Both the position numbers and the translations under genes were made by a program. This document shows, in pieces, positions 1 to 10,022 of a stretch of 10,168 nt of DNA; the stretch's first letter is position 1; every line of letters starts with the position of its first letter. The notes under the pieces are model-generated. The model worked only from the letters and a program-made list of their open reading frames with translations, did not search any database and was not told the DNA's origin. The stretch is from a virus, in the UHGV virus genome UHGV-1558260; one strand, written 5' to 3'.

Positions 1-657
1 TATACCATCCAGCGCGATTCGCAGTGCCTGAATTGTGGTAATGCTATCGTTTGGGGCTATTCCATATCGCTCGAATACAGCGATATGACCGCGCATAATC
101 TCAGGCGTAAGCTCTTTGTAAGCATAAGCAAGAGACTCTGATGCATTATCCGGCACTACTGGCGATGGCTGTTTAGCTTCTAAATCAGCAATTCTGTCAA
201 CCACGGCATCGACAGCATCTGAAAAGCCGAACCAGTTGCTCCACTCAGGCCTATCCCCGGTTGCTGCAAAATACATATCAGCTAAAGCAGACTCAGCATG
301 GTCACGCTCGTTGATGAGTTGCTCTTCGCTTTTCTCCAGTTCAGCAATACGCTTACTTCCATCCGCGATTACTCCCTCGTAATACTCGCGTTGCTCGTTG
401 AGTTTTGATTTTGCTTCCTCAAGCTCAACACGCAGCTTCCCTACCGTTAGCGCAATATCCTCGTTCTCCTGGTCACGGCGTTTGATGTATTGCTGGTTTC
501 TTTCCCGTTCATCCAGAAGCGCCAGCACAATGTGTGGCGTTATTAAGGACTCAAATTCGGCAACAGCTTGCTCACCTCGCTTGTAATTCTTAATCCCACC
601 TAAATCTTTCGCGTTCTGTGCCGCCTCACGCAGTGCCTGGTAATTAATTTCGCTCAT
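1..657 (-). CDS. Ea22-like early protein, N-terminal 219 codons (C-terminus lies beyond window start)
   Basis: ATG at 657-655 preceded by AGGAGG; frame open to position 1 (translated by hand, no stops). Begins [21 protein letters not shown]...[49 protein letters not shown]; coiled-coil N-terminus resembles Ead/Ea22-like proteins of lambdoid phages as I recall them. Absent from the ORF track because it has no stop in the window. Confidence 0.6.
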
Positions 658-837
658 TGGTTGCCTCCTTTGCGCAACATCGCATTCAGATATTTGTTGT
701 CATTAACAGAACCGAAACTCTTTCTCTTAAGCAATTCCTCTCTCGATGGCATTGGCTTTACGCGTTGGCGAATAATCATTTCTGCAGGAAGAATGCCGGG
801 GTTGTATGCAAGTCATCTCATGGTAAATTCCTCTTTG

Positions 838-1164
838 TTAATTTATTCGTATGCCTGCTCTTTCTTCATCGAGTTTTTTTAGCTTGTATCGCATAGCTCT
901 TACTGAATAAATTGAGCGGCAGGTTGCAATTGCTATTTCTTCTGCGGAGAACTTACCGAAAAGTGATACTTCGGCTCTTGTCCATCGTCTTCCACGAAGT
1001 CGGCTAACAATGTCAGCGCCAATCCTTGTTGCTTTCGCCATTACTGCTTTTTCAGTCCTTTCCAGTTTTTCAGCGATAACTTCAACTGGCATTGTCGCCG
1101 CTACTTCGCGCAAGAAATCGACTTCCCATTTCTCCCATGGAGTCTTTTTCATAGGCGATACCAT
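838..1164 (-). CDS. hypothetical phage protein (108 aa)
   Basis: ORF-track ORF; its start overlaps the stop of the upstream gene (ATG at 1164-1162, TAA at 1166-1164). No clear SD; an alternative ATG lies at 1152. No recognisable family. Confidence 0.5.
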   Translation of the reverse strand: MVSPMKKTPWEKWEVDFLREVAATMPVEVIAEKLERTEKAVMAKATRIGADIVSRLRGRRWTRAEVSLFGKFSAEEIAIATCRSIYSVRAMRYKLKKLDEERAGIRIN

Positions 1165-1646
1165 TATTTGATAAGAAGTGAAGGTTTCCCAACCTTGAGT
1201 TGAGCGCCTGGGATATTTATTCCTGCTTTTAGTTGGTGCTTGATTGCCAACTTGTCGGCTTTAATTGTCGTTTCAAACTCAACGTATTCAGGAGGAAGGG
1301 CGCTTGAGTCGATGATTTCTACGGTTTCTGACGGTTTGCGGATTGTTACCTGGTGAATACCTGCTCGAATCTTTTTCTTGCCAACCATTTCAAGCGATGA
1401 CGCTATATATGATTTGATGCTGTCAATCTTATTTTGAATTACTGCTGCTCGTTCATTCAGTGACTTCGCCTCGTCCTTGAGGCGTTCAGCATAACCAGAT
1501 TCATTTTTAATAATGGCAAGAAGTTGCTCTATTTTATCGGTAAATTCTCCTTCCATGCCTTCTATTGTGTCAGCAATCATCTCTGGCTCTAAATCTGAAT
1601 CCATCAATTTTGCGTATTCATTGGCAATTTCATACAGTTTGCTCAC
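1164..1646 (-). CDS. Gp157-like phage protein (RecT-associated)
   Basis: ORF-track ORF 1164..1652 begins at a TTG with no spacer; GTG at 1646-1644 has GGAGG 6 nt upstream and is the likelier start. Coiled-coil-rich 160 aa protein; sits directly beside RecT as Gp157-family genes commonly do. Family assignment is from memory. Confidence 0.55.
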   Translation of the reverse strand: MSKLYEIANEYAKLMDSDLEPEMIADTIEGMEGEFTDKIEQLLAIIKNESGYAERLKDEAKSLNERAAVIQNKIDSIKSYIASSLEMVGKKKIRAGIHQVTIRKPSETVEIIDSSALPPEYVEFETTIKADKLAIKHQLKAGINIPGAQLKVGKPSLLIK

Positions 1647-2541
1647 TGGCAACCTCCAGTTTCGCTTTGCATTCTGCGTAAATGGCTTGTACGTTTTGCT
1701 GCAATTTCATTCCAGATGTCAGGCGATATGCTTCTGCAAAATATCTCTTCAAATCATCCATGTTTTCAGCCTGAGCCATTTCATCACAAAGAAGTTGTGC
1801 TTTATCCGTTATTTCCTGCTGGCGTTTCCGTTCATCTTCGCGGATATCTTCCTCTGATTTGTGCGGCATAACTGGTTCAGTCCATACACCTTCTTCTTCG
1901 TTTAGTACGTGAATAGCACTATCAAGACGTGATGCCTTAGGCCAATACTTGCTTGCACGCTTTACGACCGTCTTTCGCGCCATCTCATTCCAGTGATTTA
2001 CCCATGGTCCTTTATCGCTGAATGCCGCCTTGCTTGTTTTCCTTACAGCCTCAATTTCAGCCAGACTCATCTCTTCCGTTAGATAATCACCTGCTGGCGT
2101 CTTAACTGTGCAGTAAACACCAACGATATCGCCACGATCACCGAAGGCGTTGTATTTATGGGTTGGTGCTTTATCAAGTCCGTTTGACTCATAAGTATCG
2201 TTAGCATGAACAAGCTTTGCCTGACCCCATGAGATAACACCAGACTCCATTGCAATATGTAGCAATCCCATATAGCTGATATCAAGGCAAACCATGCCGT
2301 CGCGCGGAACCAGATAAGCCAGTTTGCTAGCCGGGTTTAAGGTGATACCGATCGCCGCAACATTGATGATGGCGTTCTGTGCGCTGGTTGGATTTGCCAG
2401 TGCCGTTTTAGCCAGGTAATCATTTTTCTGGAAATACTGAATTGCAAACTGGCTTTCCTTAGCCCATGTCACCGTCTGTTCAGTCAATGCTCCGCAGAAT
2501 AACTGCTCTTGCTGTTTAACGAATTCAACGATATTGCTCAT
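1630..2541 (-). CDS. recT: RecT-family single-strand annealing recombinase
   Basis: 303 aa; motif GPWVNHWNEMARKTVVKRASKYWP matches the conserved RecT motif (Rac RecT GPWVTHWEEMAKKTAIRRLFKYLP); GGAGAAG SD upstream of the ATG; ATGA overlap with the upstream gene. Confidence 0.85.
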   Translation of the reverse strand: MSNIVEFVKQQEQLFCGALTEQTVTWAKESQFAIQYFQKNDYLAKTALANPTSAQNAIINVAAIGITLNPASKLAYLVPRDGMVCLDISYMGLLHIAMESGVISWGQAKLVHANDTYESNGLDKAPTHKYNAFGDRGDIVGVYCTVKTPAGDYLTEEMSLAEIEAVRKTSKAAFSDKGPWVNHWNEMARKTVVKRASKYWPKASRLDSAIHVLNEEEGVWTEPVMPHKSEEDIREDERKRQQEITDKAQLLCDEMAQAENMDDLKRYFAEAYRLTSGMKLQQNVQAIYAECKAKLEVASEQTV

Positions 2542-2849
2542 GCTGCTTCTCCAAAAATGTGTCTGCGTTTGAATATTGCGAAGGCATATTCAGCCTTAAC
2601 TCTTTCGGTCATTGCATCCCAGAACCATTCAGCGGCTTTTTCCTGATAGTTACAGTCATCATCTTCCAGCCAGTCGATAGCGTCCTTAGTGTGTTCATCT
2701 GGTTTATATGAGCGAAGCATTTCGCTTATTGGGTCGCAACGTTTGCAGAGGCGATCAACTTCACTGTTGATTCGTTCGTAATCTTCATCAGTAAAACTTG
2801 CGATTATTTGCGATATTTCACGCTTATCATTCAGAGTCAGAATCATCAT
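2538..2849 (-). CDS. hypothetical protein (103 aa), in the position lambda gam occupies
   Basis: ORF-track ORF; tandem ATGATG start with AGGAGA SD; ATGA-coupled to recT. Acidic protein; does not resemble lambda Gam from memory. Confidence 0.55.
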   Translation of the reverse strand: MMILTLNDKREISQIIASFTDEDYERINSEVDRLCKRCDPISEMLRSYKPDEHTKDAIDWLEDDDCNYQEKAAEWFWDAMTERVKAEYAFAIFKRRHIFGEAA

Positions 2850-2934
2850 CTTTCTCCTGTTCTTTGTGCTGATTGAGCATTTTGTTCATCTGACGAATGA
2901 ATTCTTCGTCTGACCAGTTATCTGTAAAACTCAT
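2827..2934 (-). CDS. small acidic ORF (35 aa), speculative
   Basis: ATG at 2934-2932 overlaps the Kil-like stop (ATGA); encodes MSFTDNWSDEEFIRQMNKMLNQHKEQEKDDDSDSE. Too short for the ORF track; overlaps the start of the 103-aa gene. Confidence 0.25.
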   Translation of the reverse strand: MSFTDNWSDEEFIRQMNKMLNQHKEQEKDDDSDSE

Positions 2935-3083
2935 TTCCTGCGATACCACGGAAGGTTGATAGCTGATTTCATCGCTTTATTTGCTTCAAGCCACATTTTT
3001 GAATCACCAATAAATCTGGCTATTACTGCTTTGTTTTGTGCTGCACGAAGCATCTGGTGATTGATGGCTATTTCATTGCGCAT
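2931..3083 (-). CDS. kil: Kil-like host cell-division inhibitor (50 aa)
   Basis: Hand-translated MRNEIAINHQMLRAAQNKAVIARFIGDSKMWLEANKAMKSAINLPWYRRK; the FIGD.KM segment and position directly after cIII match lambda Kil as I recall it; GAGG SD 6 nt upstream. Confidence 0.55.
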   Translation of the reverse strand: MRNEIAINHQMLRAAQNKAVIARFIGDSKMWLEANKAMKSAINLPWYRRK

Positions 3084-3199
3084 AATAAGACCTCAACTCT
3101 TTTCCATCCGTCACGTAATTTACGGGTGATTCGTTCAAGTAAAGATTCATTTAGTTGGAAGGCACCCATGCGAGCGCCTCCCGCGATTGCGTAAATCAT
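3068..3199 (-). CDS. cIII: cIII-like protein (FtsH inhibitor, 43 aa)
   Basis: Hand-translated MIYAIAGGARMGAFQLNESLLERITRKLRDGWKRVEVLLCAMK; the core ESLLERITRKLRDGWKR matches lambda CIII; AAGGAA SD upstream. Confidence 0.75.
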   Translation of the reverse strand: MIYAIAGGARMGAFQLNESLLERITRKLRDGWKRVEVLLCAMK

Positions 3200-3223
3200 G
3201 GGTGGTTCCTTATGTTGGTTTTA

Positions 3224-4192
3224 TTAGTAGGTTATTTTTGTTGCGAATACTTCGCCTTTTACGATGGCTGTTATGATATTTTTAGCAACATCTTCTGATG
3301 CGCCAACCTTGATAAGGTCAGCAAGTATTTTGTTATTTACTTCTTTCCGGTGAGCTTTATCCTTTGCTCTACGCTCTTCTTCGTCCTTGATTCTTTTTTC
3401 TTCTGCTATTCTGGCTTGCTCTTTTGCTTCAGCCTCGCGACGGATTCGTTCAGCCTCCTCCTGTGCTTTTCTGCGTTCTGCTTCAATTGCTGCCTGCTTT
3501 TCTCTTTCAGCTCGTTCTGCTTCCTCTTTTGCTTCGCGCTGTGCTCGTTGCTCGGCTTCAATGCGCTCACGCTCTGCACGCTCCGCTGCGGCCTTAGCTT
3601 CTGCTTCTCGCCTTGCTGCTGCTTCAATTTCGGCTTTTGCCTTTGCTTCGGCTTCTGCTCTGGCTTTCTCTTCAGCTTCTCTTTTTAAGCGTTCTTCATG
3701 CTCTCGCTTTTCCTGCTCCGCTTTGAGTCTTGCCTCTTCTCTTTGGCGGTCAAATTCGCGATCCATCAAAATCGCTATTTCATGGTCAGACTCAATTTGC
3801 TTTGCGAGAGCTTCAGCTGCTGCCTTAGCTTCTTCTTCGGCTTTAATCCGTGCCTGTTCCTCCTCATAATCAGTAAGAGGCTGGCGAGCCTTGGCTTTCA
3901 GTTCATCAAGGCGATCGCGCACTGTCTTGCGGTTGGCATCAATTAGCTTTGGAATTTCCTTCAGTTCAGCAACAAGGTCTTTGCCAAGACCATCGAGATA
4001 TGTTTTCGTCTGCGCAACTTTATACGCCAGAGAAGCGATCTCCTTTCTGCCCTTTGCCGTTGTGATATCAGGCACAAAGGACATAACTTCACGTTCAACC
4101 TTTTGGAGAATTTCTTCAATCTGGTCTGCAGACTGAAATACAGTCATTGCATTTGCTTTTTCAATAACAACTAAGTCTGTTACTTCACTCAT
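3224..4192 (-). CDS. highly charged E/R/K/A-rich coiled-coil protein (322 aa; TolA-domain-II-like central helix)
   Basis: ORF-track ORF 3224..4246 trimmed to the ATG at 4192-4190, which has GGAGG 4 nt upstream. About 170 central residues are EAEAKAKAEIEAAARREAEAKAAAERAERERIEAEQRAQREAKEEAERAEREKQ-type repeats between globular N- and C-terminal segments. Confidence 0.7.
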   Translation of the reverse strand: MSEVTDLVVIEKANAMTVFQSADQIEEILQKVEREVMSFVPDITTAKGRKEIASLAYKVAQTKTYLDGLGKDLVAELKEIPKLIDANRKTVRDRLDELKAKARQPLTDYEEEQARIKAEEEAKAAAEALAKQIESDHEIAILMDREFDRQREEARLKAEQEKREHEERLKREAEEKARAEAEAKAKAEIEAAARREAEAKAAAERAERERIEAEQRAQREAKEEAERAEREKQAAIEAERRKAQEEAERIRREAEAKEQARIAEEKRIKDEEERRAKDKAHRKEVNNKILADLIKVGASEDVAKNIITAIVKGEVFATKITY

Positions 4193-4204
4193 ATATCCTC
4201 CATC

Positions 4205-4233
4205 AAAAAAATTGCCCTCACACTGGAGGGCAA
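4205..4233 (-). terminator. intrinsic terminator (8-bp GC-rich stem, 7-U tail) 13 bp upstream of the coiled-coil gene
   Basis: Plus strand has A7 at 4205-4211 then ttgccctc-acactg-gagggcaa (4212-4233); on the minus strand this reads hairpin followed by TTTTTTT. Confidence 0.6.
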
Positions 4234-4324
4234 AGAAGATTTCCAATAATCAGAACAAGTCGGCTCCTGTTTAGTTACGAGCGACATTGCTCACATAGCA
4301 GACTCGTAAATCTGCTATAGGCGC

Positions 4325-4483
4325 TTATTCGCATCGCATGACAACATCAAATTTTTCGAGATTACTTTGTCGCAACAATCCTTCTTCTACTCGGTCAGCT
4401 TTTCTATAATTATCAAATTCGAAATGTTTAATTACTTCTTTTGTTTCTCGCTCTATAACTTCAACGATGTATCTCTTATTCAT
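4325..4483 (-). CDS. small hypothetical protein (52 aa)
   Basis: ATG at 4483-4481 overlaps the TAA of the 89-aa gene (TAATG); encodes MNKRYIVEVIERETKEVIKHFEFDNYRKADRVEEGLLRQSNLEKFDVVMRCE. Below the ORF-track length cutoff. Confidence 0.4.
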   Translation of the reverse strand: MNKRYIVEVIERETKEVIKHFEFDNYRKADRVEEGLLRQSNLEKFDVVMRCE

Positions 4484-4752
4484 TACTCATCACCTAGGGC
4501 TTTTTTGATAGCTTCGCGAGCCTTATTAACAGCTCCATACCATTCTGGATATGTTGTCGTTGTTCTATTTTCGGCTTGCTTAAGTAATAACTGAAGTGCT
4601 TCAAGTAAATCCGGTGCAGCCATAGCCAACCTTCCATTTGCTACGGCCTCTTCTGTTTCTTTACCGGATAGGGCCATTCCCGGGTGTGAAAATAAAATTA
4701 AGCCTGCAAATTGGCTTCTCGCCAATTTTTTCCTAGTACCTTTAAATTCCAT
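4483..4752 (-). CDS. hypothetical protein (89 aa)
   Basis: ORF-track ORF; AGAGG SD about 7 nt upstream of the ATG; lies immediately downstream of the 4773-4798 hairpin. Confidence 0.55.
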   Translation of the reverse strand: MEFKGTRKKLARSQFAGLILFSHPGMALSGKETEEAVANGRLAMAAPDLLEALQLLLKQAENRTTTTYPEWYGAVNKAREAIKKALGDE

Positions 4753-4772
4753 GTTAGCCTCTGTTGTTTATG

Positions 4773-4798
4773 CCAAAAGAAGGCCGACTATGCGGCCT
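4773..4798 (-). terminator. tL1-like intrinsic terminator
   Basis: aggccg-actatg-cggcct hairpin at 4781-4798; on the minus strand it is followed by TCTTTTGG (plus 4773-4780). Confidence 0.45.
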
Positions 4799-4839
4799 GT
4801 GATGTTAGATTTACTTTCATTTTTGAACGGCAGCTACAA

Positions 4840-5103
4840 TTATGATGGAATGTACAAAACCACTTTCCAGTTCATAGAAGTGGATGATGGCATAAAATAA
4901 TCCCACGACTCGTTAGCTACTAACTCTTTATTAACTGTGGTGGCAGCAATTTCGGCACCACCTTTATTATTAAAAATGTCGTTCGAATACTGACATTTTC
5001 CATCTGCATGCACATATAAAATATCATATGTCTCTGTATCGTAATCACCACTTATGTCTCTGATAACAATTCCTGGCTTCAATGATTTAATTTTCTTGTC
5101 CAT
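4840..5103 (-). CDS. hypothetical protein (87 aa), translationally coupled to N
   Basis: ATG at 5103-5101 lies 8 nt after the N stop with a GAGGTGA SD overlapping that stop; coding sequence is visibly AT-rich. No recognisable family. Confidence 0.55.
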   Translation of the reverse strand: MDKKIKSLKPGIVIRDISGDYDTETYDILYVHADGKCQYSNDIFNNKGGAEIAATTVNKELVANESWDYFMPSSTSMNWKVVLYIPS

Positions 5104-5596: not shown

Positions 5597-5627
5597 ACCC
5601 TTCTTCAGGGCTTAATTTTTAAGAGCG
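5597..5627 (-). promoter_or_regulatory. nutL: nutL (boxA CGCTCTTAAAAATTAA and boxB GCCCTGAAGAAGGGT hairpin)
   Basis: Reverse complement of 5597-5627 gives the lambda nutL boxA and boxB elements; boxB closes with a G-U pair where I recall lambda having G-C. Confidence 0.85.
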
Positions 5628-5666
5628 TCACCTTCATGGTGGTCAGTGCGTCCTGCTGATGTGCTT

Positions 5667-5729
5667 AGTATCACCGCCAGTGGTATTTATGTCAACACCG
5701 CCAGAGATAATTTATCACCGCAGATGGTT
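5667..5729 (-). promoter_or_regulatory. pL promoter with operators OL1, OL2, OL3
   Basis: TATCACCGCCAGTGGTA (5669-5685), CAACACCGCCAGAGATA (5693-5709), TATCACCGCAGATGGTT (5713-5729); minus-strand -35 TTGACA and -10 GATACT with 17-bp spacing. Confidence 0.9.
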
Positions 5730-5879
5730 ATCTGTATGTTTTTTATATAGATTTATTTTTTGCAGGGTTGTGTGGATTGGGAAGGTGATCGAGAGATCTG
5801 AATTGCGATGTTTAGTGAGTTGTATCTATTAATTTTGAAATAAATACAATTGGTTATGCGTTTTTTGGGGGCGTTAGGC

Positions 5880-5905
5880 AAAGAAAACCCGGCGCAGATG
5901 CCGGG
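5880..5905 (-). terminator. intrinsic terminator downstream of the 301-aa gene
   Basis: cccggc-gcagat-gccggg hairpin at 5888-5905; minus strand then reads TTTTCTTT (plus 5880-5887). Sits about 13 bp past the stop at 5918. Confidence 0.6.
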
Positions 5906-5917
5906 TTGTGGTGGAGA

Positions 5918-6823
5918 TCAATGCTTATTTGGGAGTGCTGGTTTTTTTATCGACTCTAATAGCTCGGAGGCGTTACTAATCTTTTTGTTCCCAAGGTAAT
6001 TTGGCAGTTTTTCCATTGCGTAATTATCGTGTAGCCATTTTCTGAACACGCCAAGTGCCTCAATAGGATAAATCCAAGCTGTTATATGCTTATTTGCAGC
6101 TGACTGCCTGTAATTTTCGGGGAATAAATGTGGGTACTGCACCCTTTCCCCGAATTTCTCAGATAGCCCATTAGCTGTCCAATACTTTCCCCAGTGAATT
6201 CCAACACTTCCATCCAAAGATGTGGTGTCATCCATTGGGAATCCTCCTCCGATCAGGTTCATGGCAATGTCAGCTATCTCTCTGAATACTGCAAAATGAG
6301 TTGTCGGTATCTGATCGTTTAGCTTAATCCTTGCTCTATAGTTCTCGAATGAGATATCTATTGAAGCATTTGGGTTGTAATTTGACTTTTCATAAATCAT
6401 TCGCTTAAGCGTGTACTCAGCCAAGCGAACAAAATTACCTATTGCGACTGACCTATCAAAATTGGTGGCATCTAGAGCGTAGTAACGGAGGATAGCCATG
6501 CAAACATAGTCAGGATAAGCATGAGTTTCCACGTTTGAGCTATTTAAAACGCGAGTGTATAGCTTTTCGACGTTATGAAACCCTTTCTCAGCTAAATACG
6601 CAGCTACTTTTTGACCTCTGGGTTTGTTTTTCTCTGTGTTCCAGTTTGATGTGAACACCCTCAGTGGCGTGTCATCAATGCCGCATAACTTTGCGAGACC
6701 GTAGAGAGTTAGGTAAGGAGTTCCATCATTGAGAACGCCCATAGGAATATCATCAGAAACAACCTCTACTACAGGGAAAAGCTGCATTTGATGCAGGGAT
6801 TCGCTATTGCTGTTAATCGACAT
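5918..6823 (-). CDS. hypothetical protein (301 aa) in the cI-to-pL interval (rexAB position); candidate exclusion/defence gene
   Basis: ORF-track ORF; AAGGAA upstream of the ATG; 86-bp spacer after the cI stop; AT-rich relative to cI. Does not resemble RexA or RexB as I recall them; no family recognised by eye. Confidence 0.7.
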   Translation of the reverse strand: MSINSNSESLHQMQLFPVVEVVSDDIPMGVLNDGTPYLTLYGLAKLCGIDDTPLRVFTSNWNTEKNKPRGQKVAAYLAEKGFHNVEKLYTRVLNSSNVETHAYPDYVCMAILRYYALDATNFDRSVAIGNFVRLAEYTLKRMIYEKSNYNPNASIDISFENYRARIKLNDQIPTTHFAVFREIADIAMNLIGGGFPMDDTTSLDGSVGIHWGKYWTANGLSEKFGERVQYPHLFPENYRQSAANKHITAWIYPIEALGVFRKWLHDNYAMEKLPNYLGNKKISNASELLESIKKPALPNKH

Positions 6824-6909
6824 ATCTTAATGATTTCCTTATTTTTATTGTAGGGATCTTCTTTTTTATTTCCTACATCTAGATGCGTATAAAGTCTCTT
6901 GCTGCGGAC

Positions 6910-7625
<716 letters not shown>

Positions 7626-7636
7626 ACGTTAAATCT

Positions 7637-7700
7637 ATCACCGCAAGGGATAAATATCTAACACCGTGCGTGTTGACTATTTTACCTCTAGCGGTGATAA
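7637..7700. promoter_or_regulatory. OR3, OR2, OR1 operators with divergent pRM and pR promoters
   Basis: TATCACCGCAAGGGATA (7637-7653), TAACACCGTGCGTGTTG (7659-7675), TACCTCTAGCGGTGATA (7683-7699); pR -35 TTGACT and -10 GATAAT; cro SD TAAGGAGG follows. Confidence 0.9.
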
Positions 7701-7716
7701 TGGTTGCATGTACTAA

Positions 7717-7926
<210 letters not shown>

Positions 7927-8519: not shown

Positions 8520-9327
8520 GTTAGCTGATTACAGGCCTCAACTGGAGGTCGTGGAGCATCGCGTGGCAGATACCGAAGATGGTTTCATGCGCGTTGCTAA
8601 CGAGATTACCGACAGTCTGCTGATGGCTGATTTAACCGTCCGGCAGATGAAGGTGATGCTCGCTATCATGCGCAAGACATACGGATTCAATAAGCCGATG
8701 GATCGACTCACAAACACGCAGATAGCAGCCATGACAGGTATTCATCACACTCATGTTTGCGCTGCCAAGCGCCAGCTTATTGAGCGTAAATTCCTCATTG
8801 CTGATGGCGTGAAAATCGGAGTGAACAAGGTGGTTTCGCAGTGGATTAGCCAGGACAGCTTAACATTAGCTAAAACAGCTAATAAAACATTAGCCGAGTC
8901 GGCTAATGGGTATAAGCCAAGTCAGCTAAACACAAAAGACAATATACAAAAGACAATAAATACAAATACCCCCTTACCCCCTAACGGGGGCGGCGATGGG
9001 CAGGTTAAACCTGAACGTCGCAAGGCAGAACGAATCGACTACGAATCCTTCCTGAACGCCTACAACACCGAAGTCGGTGACAGACTTCCACACGCTGTTG
9101 CGGTCAACGAAAAACGCAAACGCCGCCTGAAGAAAATCATCCCGCAACTGAAAACGCCAAACGTGGACGGTTTCAGAGCGTATGTCAGGGCGTTTGTGCA
9201 TCAGGCCAAGCCGTTTTACTTCGGAGATAACGACACGGGCTGGACGGCTGATTTTGATTACCTGCTGAGGGAAGATTCGTTAACGGGAGTTCGGGAAGGG
9301 AAGTTTGCAGACAGGGGGATTGCATGA
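8506..9327 (+). CDS. replication initiator, lambda-O-like N-terminal domain with a non-lambda C-terminal domain
   Basis: 273 aa; [38 protein letters not shown] aligns with lambda O DLTKRQFKVLLAILRKTYGWNKPMDRITDSQL; AGGAG SD; the gene contains the iteron array; ATGA-coupled to the helicase gene. Confidence 0.85.
8846..8990. other. putative replication origin: four about 19-bp iterons (ATTAGC-N7-GCTAAT type), A-rich tract, then C5/G5 inverted repeat
   Basis: attagccaggacagcttaa (8846-8864), attagctaaaacagctaat (8865-8883), attagccgagtcggctaat (8889-8907), ataagccaagtcagctaaa (8912-8930); A-rich 8931-8968; ccccc...ggggg at 8969-8990. Same layout as lambda ori inside O. Confidence 0.55.
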
Positions 9328-10022
9328 GACAGGATATCGAAGCGAGCGTTATCGGTGGCCTGCTGATTGGTGGATTAACACCAACTGCCAGTGACGTTCT
9401 GGCAACGCTTGAGCCGGAAGCGTTTTCAATTCCGCTCTACCGGAAAGCCTTCGAGGTTATCCGGAAGCAGGCGCGAAACAGAAACCTAATCGACGCGCTG
9501 ATGGTTGCCGAGGCGTGCGGAGAGGAGCATTTCACGTCAATCCTGATGACCAGCAAAAACTGCCCGAGTGCCGCAAACCTGAAGGGATATGCCGGAATGG
9601 TCGCGGATAACTATCACCGCCGTCTGGTGCTGGAAATCATGGATGAAATGCGTGAACCAATTCAGAGCGGAACCATCGATACATCGAGTCAGGCGATGGA
9701 CGAGCTTGTAAAGCGTCTTTCAGCCATCAGAAAGCCCCGTGACGAGGTTAAACCTGTACGGTTAGGGGAAATCATCACTGACTACACTGACACGCTTGAC
9801 AGGCGTCTGAGGAACGGAGAAGAGTCCGATACCCTGAAGACCGGAATCGAAGAACTTGACGCTATCACCGGAGGGATGAACGCGGAAGACCTGGTAATTA
9901 TCGCCGCTCGTCCTGGTATGGGGAAAACCGAACTGGCGCTGAAGATTGCCGAAGGTGTTGCAAGCCGCGTTATTCCTGGTTCTGACGTCCGGAGCGGAGT
10001 ATTGATTTTCTCATGGAAATGA
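9324..10022 (+). CDS. DnaB-family replicative helicase (N-terminal domain plus Walker A); frame closes prematurely
   Basis: 232-aa ORF ending ...[24 protein letters not shown]...GVLIFSWK then stop. Walker A GMGKT present. DnaB-like peptides continue downstream in other frames (EMSA; [12 protein letters not shown]; [21 protein letters not shown] to the window end). Confidence 0.7.

Follow-up and report, generated by a model that had tools for sequence, protein, structure and literature searches.

The rexAB slot of a lambda-type immunity region carries the bstA(Ec) abortive-infection locus and a candidate aba(Ec) element bounded by direct repeats

The window, the whole stretch of 10,168 nucleotides analyzed here from the virus genome UHGV-1558260, contains a lambda-type immunity region in which a single ORF of 301 amino acids lies in the slot of rexA and rexB, between cI and pL (Table 1). 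The flanks are lambda-like, as the original prediction had it: the proteins Cro (7726-7926) and N are of the lambda type, as is the C-terminal part of cI (173 residues), and a Timm-like terminator (hairpin plus T-tract, 5907-5886), pL, and oL1-3 were located beyond the end of the ORF. The terminator is common to rexB-type cassettes, and the homology of lambda itself ends inside it, at 5907, where lambda has rexB. Farther along the pL operon, three small ORFs of 52, 89, and 87 aa (4325-5103, minus strand) sit between N and a Glu/Lys/Ala-rich 340-aa protein (3224-4246). They match PHROGs 6949, 1273, and 33140, which are profiles with unassigned function, and may be further morons.

Table 1. Features of the immunity region and of the bstA(Ec) locus in the window.
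Feature	Position	Strand	Basis and remarks
pL, TTGACA-17-GATACT	5695-5667	minus	-35 at 5695-5690, -10 at 5672-5667; promoter scan
oL1-oL3	5669-5729		coordinates taken over from the CL707 annotation by alignment
1052-bp segment, cloned bstA(Ec) fragment	5858-6909	minus	exact match to the NCTC10963 contig
Rho-independent terminator, lambda Timm-like, AACCCGGC-ATCTGC-GCCGGGTT then T-tract	5876-5907	minus	terminator scan; Timm annotated in CL707
bstA(Ec) ORF, 301 aa	5918-6823	minus	ORF list; BstA profile matches; exact protein in NCTC10963
Candidate aba(Ec), ~65 bp	6858-6792	minus	direct repeat straddling ATG 6823; putative function
cI-bstA spacer, 86 bp, 32.6% GC	6824-6909	minus	between the cI stop (6912-6910) and the ATG
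cI repressor gene, lambda-type	6910-7625	minus	two +1 insertions, at 7448 and 7548; CL707 annotation
pRM	~7632-7660	minus	just upstream of cI; CL707 annotation
pR	7673-7701	plus	promoter scan

The start codon of the ORF is well defined, as an in-frame TAA two codons upstream of the ATG makes a longer start impossible. The gene had been credited with a Shine-Dalgarno sequence of its own, and an SD-like AAGGA is indeed present at 6840-6836, although its distance of 12 nt from the ATG is long. The claim that the gene is noticeably AT-rich compared with cI is right in direction: the GC content is 41.9% in the ORF, 45.7% in cI, and 45.0% in the window, an AT bias that is real but modest. No promoter-like site was found on the minus strand of the spacer between cI and bstA, and a separate bstA promoter was rejected on this ground. 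Because the spacer lacks such a site and a single terminator follows bstA, we infer read-through from pRM, and cI and bstA would be cotranscribed from pRM to the Timm-like terminator in keeping with the operon architecture of lambda.

The original prediction could not place the 301-aa protein in any family, a view that the profile searches it had proposed overturned by identifying the BstA defense family. The protein gives full-length matches to PHROG 6287 (“BstA abortive infection system, replication inhibitor”; E=6e-133, residues 5-301 of 301) and to the PADLOC BstA model (E=1.3e-105). In tblastn comparisons, it is 42.5% identical to BstA(BTP1) (st313-td) over 99% of the length and 100% identical to CL70704 of phage CL707; the published identity between BstA(Ec) and BstA(BTP1) is 41.7% (Owen et al. 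2021, PMC8585504). RefSeq lists the same protein as WP_000026554.1 under the name “BstA C-terminal domain-containing protein.” In precomputed annotations, PF26567 (BstA_C) is assigned to the identical protein in 10 contigs and to 115 of 116 homologs. Local Pfam-A and NCBIfam scans of the protein returned zero matches, a result that is uninformative because PF26567 is visible only in the precomputed annotations and the Pfam-A copy probably lacks this recent entry; a Pfam KilA-N domain was likewise not found on the protein at the sequence level. By its profile matches, the protein is assigned to the BstA family (PHROG 6287, PADLOC BstA, PF26567). The gene order of cI followed by bstA on the same strand recurs in BTP1, RCIP0114, S137, D14H, and PseuP_222 and spans BTP1, phages of Klebsiella, Salmonella, and Pseudomonas, and 10 E. 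coli contigs.

The locus is identical to an allele that has already been characterized. Three BstA proteins were studied by Owen et al. 2021 (PMC8585504), one of which is BstA(Ec) from E. coli NCTC10963. The primers used to clone bstA(Ec) terminate in GTCCGCAGCAAGAGACTTTATACG and GCGTTTTTTGGGGGCGTTAGGC; what was moved into P22 is the 1052-bp stretch at 1520919-1521970 of the NCTC10963 contig (Owen et al. 2021, PMC8585504). Each primer core occurs once in the window, at 6886-6909 (minus) and 5858-5879 (plus), and their positions therefore delimit exactly 1052 bp. This segment is also present as an exact match in three other E. coli assemblies, and NCTC10963 has a gene for the identical 301-aa protein (E4V89_RS07420) at the published position of bstA(Ec). 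Since the 1052-bp locus and the protein are identical, the experiments of Owen et al. apply to the window sequence.

NCTC10963 shares with the window the spacer and terminator within the 1052 bp as well as the imm-lambda flanks cI, cro, and cII. The other prophage modules differ, and indels are present in the cI and helicase genes of the window. The wild imm-lambda phage CL707 (EF120459) is identical in DNA over 5868-6951 and carries the gene in the same slot, between cI and Timm/oL/pL; it differs from the window to the left of N, where it harbors an IS10. This context of CL707 is that given by the GenBank annotation of EF120459 and by the citation of the phage in Owen et al. 2021 (PMC8585504). 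The 2007 record labels CL70704 a hypothetical protein (Degnan et al. 2007, record EF120459) because it predates the description of BstA.

Induction of BstA(Ec) in Salmonella LT2 protects the cells from several Salmonella phages to about the extent seen with BstA(BTP1); it additionally blocks BTP1 itself, and its effect on coliphages is somewhat smaller (Owen et al. 2021, PMC8585504). When P22 is given the bstA(Ec) locus, it is immune to BstA(Ec) only and not to the other BstA variants (PMC8585504). The literature of 2021 already covers the family of bstA(Ec), its role in defense, its self-immunity, and its place in the rexAB slot, with work on identical DNA. The proposal of a horizontally acquired, repressor-linked defense or exclusion gene, made from synteny only, had rightly picked out a real defense gene.

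The mechanism is described mostly from BstA(BTP1). The protein is made constitutively in the lysogen, moves to the phage DNA upon infection by a sensitive heterologous phage, and blocks phage DNA replication, so that the cell dies without progeny in an abortive infection; lysogenic development is unaffected by BstA, and the defense is protein-mediated (Owen et al. 2021, PMC8585504). Against its own BstA, the prophage is protected by aba, which in BTP1 is a 63-bp DNA element extending from -29 to +34 of bstA with terminal CCCGCC direct repeats, each of which is essential (Owen et al. 2021, PMC8585504). aba(BTP1) acts as DNA, in trans, and only at high copy, and it gives no protection from BstA(Ec) (Owen et al. 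2021, PMC8585504).

With high confidence, the locus in the window is read as the bstA(Ec)-aba(Ec) abortive-infection system of a prophage in the rexAB slot of lambda. In the lysogen, bstA(Ec) would be transcribed together with cI from pRM up to the Timm-like hairpin. Upon infection by a sensitive phage, BstA would go to the phage DNA, replication would fail, and the cell would die. The candidate aba(Ec) would spare its own prophage; like aba(BTP1), it would act as DNA once replication of the prophage has amplified it. A single-gene defense had been predicted, and the gene is indeed a defense gene with a product identical to BstA(Ec). The system, however, is not strictly single-gene because a cis DNA element, aba, overlaps the start of the gene and belongs to it.

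It is improbable that the intact bstA merely sits in a decaying or cryptic prophage with a broken repressor, as a silent or misexpressed remnant. This explanation draws on the single-nucleotide insertions at 7448 and 7548 that break cI into three frames relative to CL707, ECO3183, NCTC10963, and E. coli B27 (NZ_AP027424.1), the last being the closest backbone (97.5% over 75% of the window). It also draws on the DnaB-type helicase gene (start at 9324), which differs from B27 by four single-base indels at 10013, 10028, 10060, and 10087 that cut the ORF off at 10022. If the cI insertions were real, the prophage would be without a functional repressor. Loss of CI, however, derepresses pL and pR in a lambdoid prophage and is normally lethal. 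All six indels are single-base changes; four of them lie in homopolymer runs, including both in cI (A4 for A3 and A8 for A7 on the coding strand), and the other two fall within the same 75-bp stretch that holds all helicase indels. They cluster in two short stretches, with none in 653-4292, where the alignment to B27 is gap-free. Since the indels are single-base, mostly homopolymeric, and clustered, local sequencing or assembly error fits them: the cI insertions are probably such errors, and the helicase cluster resembles a short region of poor sequence quality. Across the bstA fragment, the window does not differ from the functional allele.

The predicted structure bears on a second explanation. 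The AlphaFold model built from an alignment of 85 sequences reaches a pLDDT of 85; a single-sequence model with a pLDDT of 41 was set aside. The model takes on two helical/beta domains, the N-terminal of which gives weak fold matches to winged-helix, APSES, KilA-N, Bro-N, and antirepressor folds. When PDB sequences were searched with a profile, the best match was a beta-galactosidase (E=0.71), and Foldseek found no match in the PDB at E<=0.001, as a result of which the C-terminal BstA_C domain has no solved relative; in this it differs from the KilA-N, Bro-N, and APSES domains, to which only the N-terminal domain bears a weak likeness. The structure search that had been proposed as a check thus yields a model that weakly suggests an N-terminal KilA-N-like DNA-binding domain followed by BstA_C.

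On this basis, the main role of the protein could be that of a KilA-N/Bro-N regulator or antirepressor of the lysis-lysogeny switch or of host genes, with defense as a secondary effect; one version of this idea is the virulence or antivirulence role once proposed for Salmonella st313-td (bstA). The viral fold matches are to KilA-N, Bro-N, antirepressor, and repressor-domain proteins, and earlier reports, as cited in Owen et al. 2021 (PMC8585504), tie st313-td to virulence phenotypes. The matches are nevertheless weak (E from 5e-4 to 0.3, TM <0.35) and confined to the predicted DNA-binding N-terminal domain. The published absence of an effect on lysogenic development and the protein-mediated defense also speak against such a role, and the identical locus gave both defense and cognate immunity (PMC8585504), which leaves a primarily regulatory function very unlikely.

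A RexAB-like exclusion system that depolarizes the membrane would share the position, strand, flanks, and terminator found here, but its chance of being correct is negligible and a Rex-like function is rejected on sequence grounds: there is one ORF instead of two, similarity to RexA or RexB is absent, as had been noted from the start, with profile searches returning only BstA and a marginal HTH model (E=0.0015), the structural model consists of two helical/beta domains with a DNA-binding-like N terminus, and the published BstA mechanism is the inhibition of phage DNA replication (PMC8585504).

bstA(Ec)-aba(Ec) and RexAB occupy the same slot, on the same strand, with the same flanks and terminator and presumably in the same pRM operon, and both are abortive-infection systems expressed in the lysogen. 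RexAB consists of two genes, for a sensor and a membrane protein, whereas BstA is one gene with a DNA element, and the proteins are unrelated. Rex is reported to depolarize the membrane, in contrast to BstA, which acts by blocking the replication of phage DNA (Owen et al. 2021, PMC8585504).

The comparison of cargo between cI and pL shows how the slot is used in E. coli. Its flanks occur in 1,197 of 5,426 complete genomes, and 33 of the 1,197 carry bstA cargo over at least 80% of 5600-7000; in an assembly collection, the 301-aa protein is indexed in 1,445 blocks. In B27, the flanks that enclose bstA in the window surround rexA and rexB instead, and the homology of B27 to the window breaks at 5907 and 6903, at the Timm-like terminator and the cI stop. 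E. coli PK12 (CP074031) encodes an identical BstA(Ec) twice, in two prophages, and each copy sits behind a 231-aa non-lambda repressor with a different cro. If their aba sites are equal, each of the two prophages would be immune to the BstA of the other. The exchange seen against B27 and the PK12 copies behind non-lambda repressors together argue that the bstA cassette moves between immunity regions. Such movement at this “hotspot” was already pointed out in Owen et al. 2021 (PMC8585504), also with reference to Degnan et al. 2007.

The self-immunity element of this locus is where the analysis extends the published work. Repeats were described for aba(BTP1) only, and aba(Ec) and aba(Kp) are unmapped in Owen et al. 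2021 (PMC8585504). Two ATCCCT cores lie at 6857-6852 and 6800-6795, which corresponds to -34 and +23 relative to the ATG and a spacing of 57 bp. They extend to GATCCCTaCA (6858-6849) and aATCCCTgCA (6801-6792). In BTP1, the CCCGCCA copies are found at -28 and +28, with a spacing of 56 bp. From this parallel, we infer that aba(Ec) is bounded by the ATCCCT direct repeats; the candidate takes in the ribosome-binding region together with codons 1-10 of bstA. The BTP1 locus belongs to the same family and shares the position after the repressor and the start-straddling direct repeat at 56-57 bp. It differs in the repeat itself (CCCGCC instead of ATCCCT) and in the flanking immunity region, and because the repeat sequences differ, no cross-immunity would be expected between aba(BTP1) and BstA(Ec).

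The same architecture was sought in 80 further bstA loci gathered from viral contigs and anchored on the conserved MGV(L)NDG motif. A repeat was counted when it was exact, at least 6 nt long, and spaced by 56 or 57 bp, with the upstream copy ~115 nt before the anchor. Such a repeat is carried in register by 22 of 53 dereplicated loci, a count that does not represent independent events, as bstA loci are phylogenetically related. Control spacings from 20 to 99 (other than 56/57) gave a mean of 0.24 loci and a maximum of 2, and shuffling of the upstream block gave a mean of 0.65 loci and a maximum of 4. A repeat was present in 41.5% of block pairs from the same locus versus 7% of pairs combined across loci. 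One copy lies in the untranslated leader and the other in approximately codons 6-11, and the two copies covary between lineages.

The cores are lineage-specific, and at least 14 distinct ones were found, among them ATCCCT, GATCCC, GATCGC, TGGTCA(C)C, GAGCAGC, GCAGCACCCC, CCACCA, CCCGCCA, CCGCCAG, and TGGTCACC. This diversity shows repeated covariation of the two copies despite the relatedness of the loci. Within the GATC group of enterobacterial loci, the coding copy has a serine codon (TCC/TCG) that usually matches the base of the noncoding copy, and in close variants of the window fragment both cores are unchanged. Among distant loci, that of Erythrobacter carries TTGGTCACC at -38 and +18 and that of Lysobacter carries GAGCAGC at -41 and +15. 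Of the four additional distant loci, two lack an in-register repeat: none was found in the Orbus locus, and the one in Aggregatibacter is out of register. The architecture is hence common but not universal. The core TGGTCACC is common to the Erythrobacter locus and four Klebsiella-type loci, and because loci this distant share it, the specificity classes of aba may be few and recur across taxa.

Some further features of the region were observed. The upstream copy in the window contains a GATC (Dam site) at 6858-6855, and in many enterobacterial relatives both copies read GATCCC or GATCGC; in some of these relatives, the upstream copy lies inside a short GC-rich inverted repeat. The terminator scan flagged a hairpin, CTGCA-TCAAA-TGCAG followed by CTTTTCC (6796-6782, minus), that immediately follows the downstream repeat copy and lies within codons 10-14 of bstA.

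On balance, these comparisons favor an anti-BstA site that is a bipartite element of the whole family, with a lineage-specific motif pair at 56-57 bp, instead of a peculiarity of BTP1, and they place aba(Ec) at the position given in Table 1. Because the spacing is fixed, the architecture suggests that two DNA-binding domains of BstA read the two half-sites. A family-wide repeat rule is not stated in Owen et al. 2021 (PMC8585504), nor in the later papers searched that refer to anti-BstA, whose titles and single mentions point to a subject other than aba itself. The candidate aba(Ec) and the 56-57-bp rule represent a modest, testable extension of a known system. A conserved repeat architecture would make the neutralization of BstA by aba directly testable, and, if the rule is true, the specificity of aba would become predictable from sequence and could be re-engineered.
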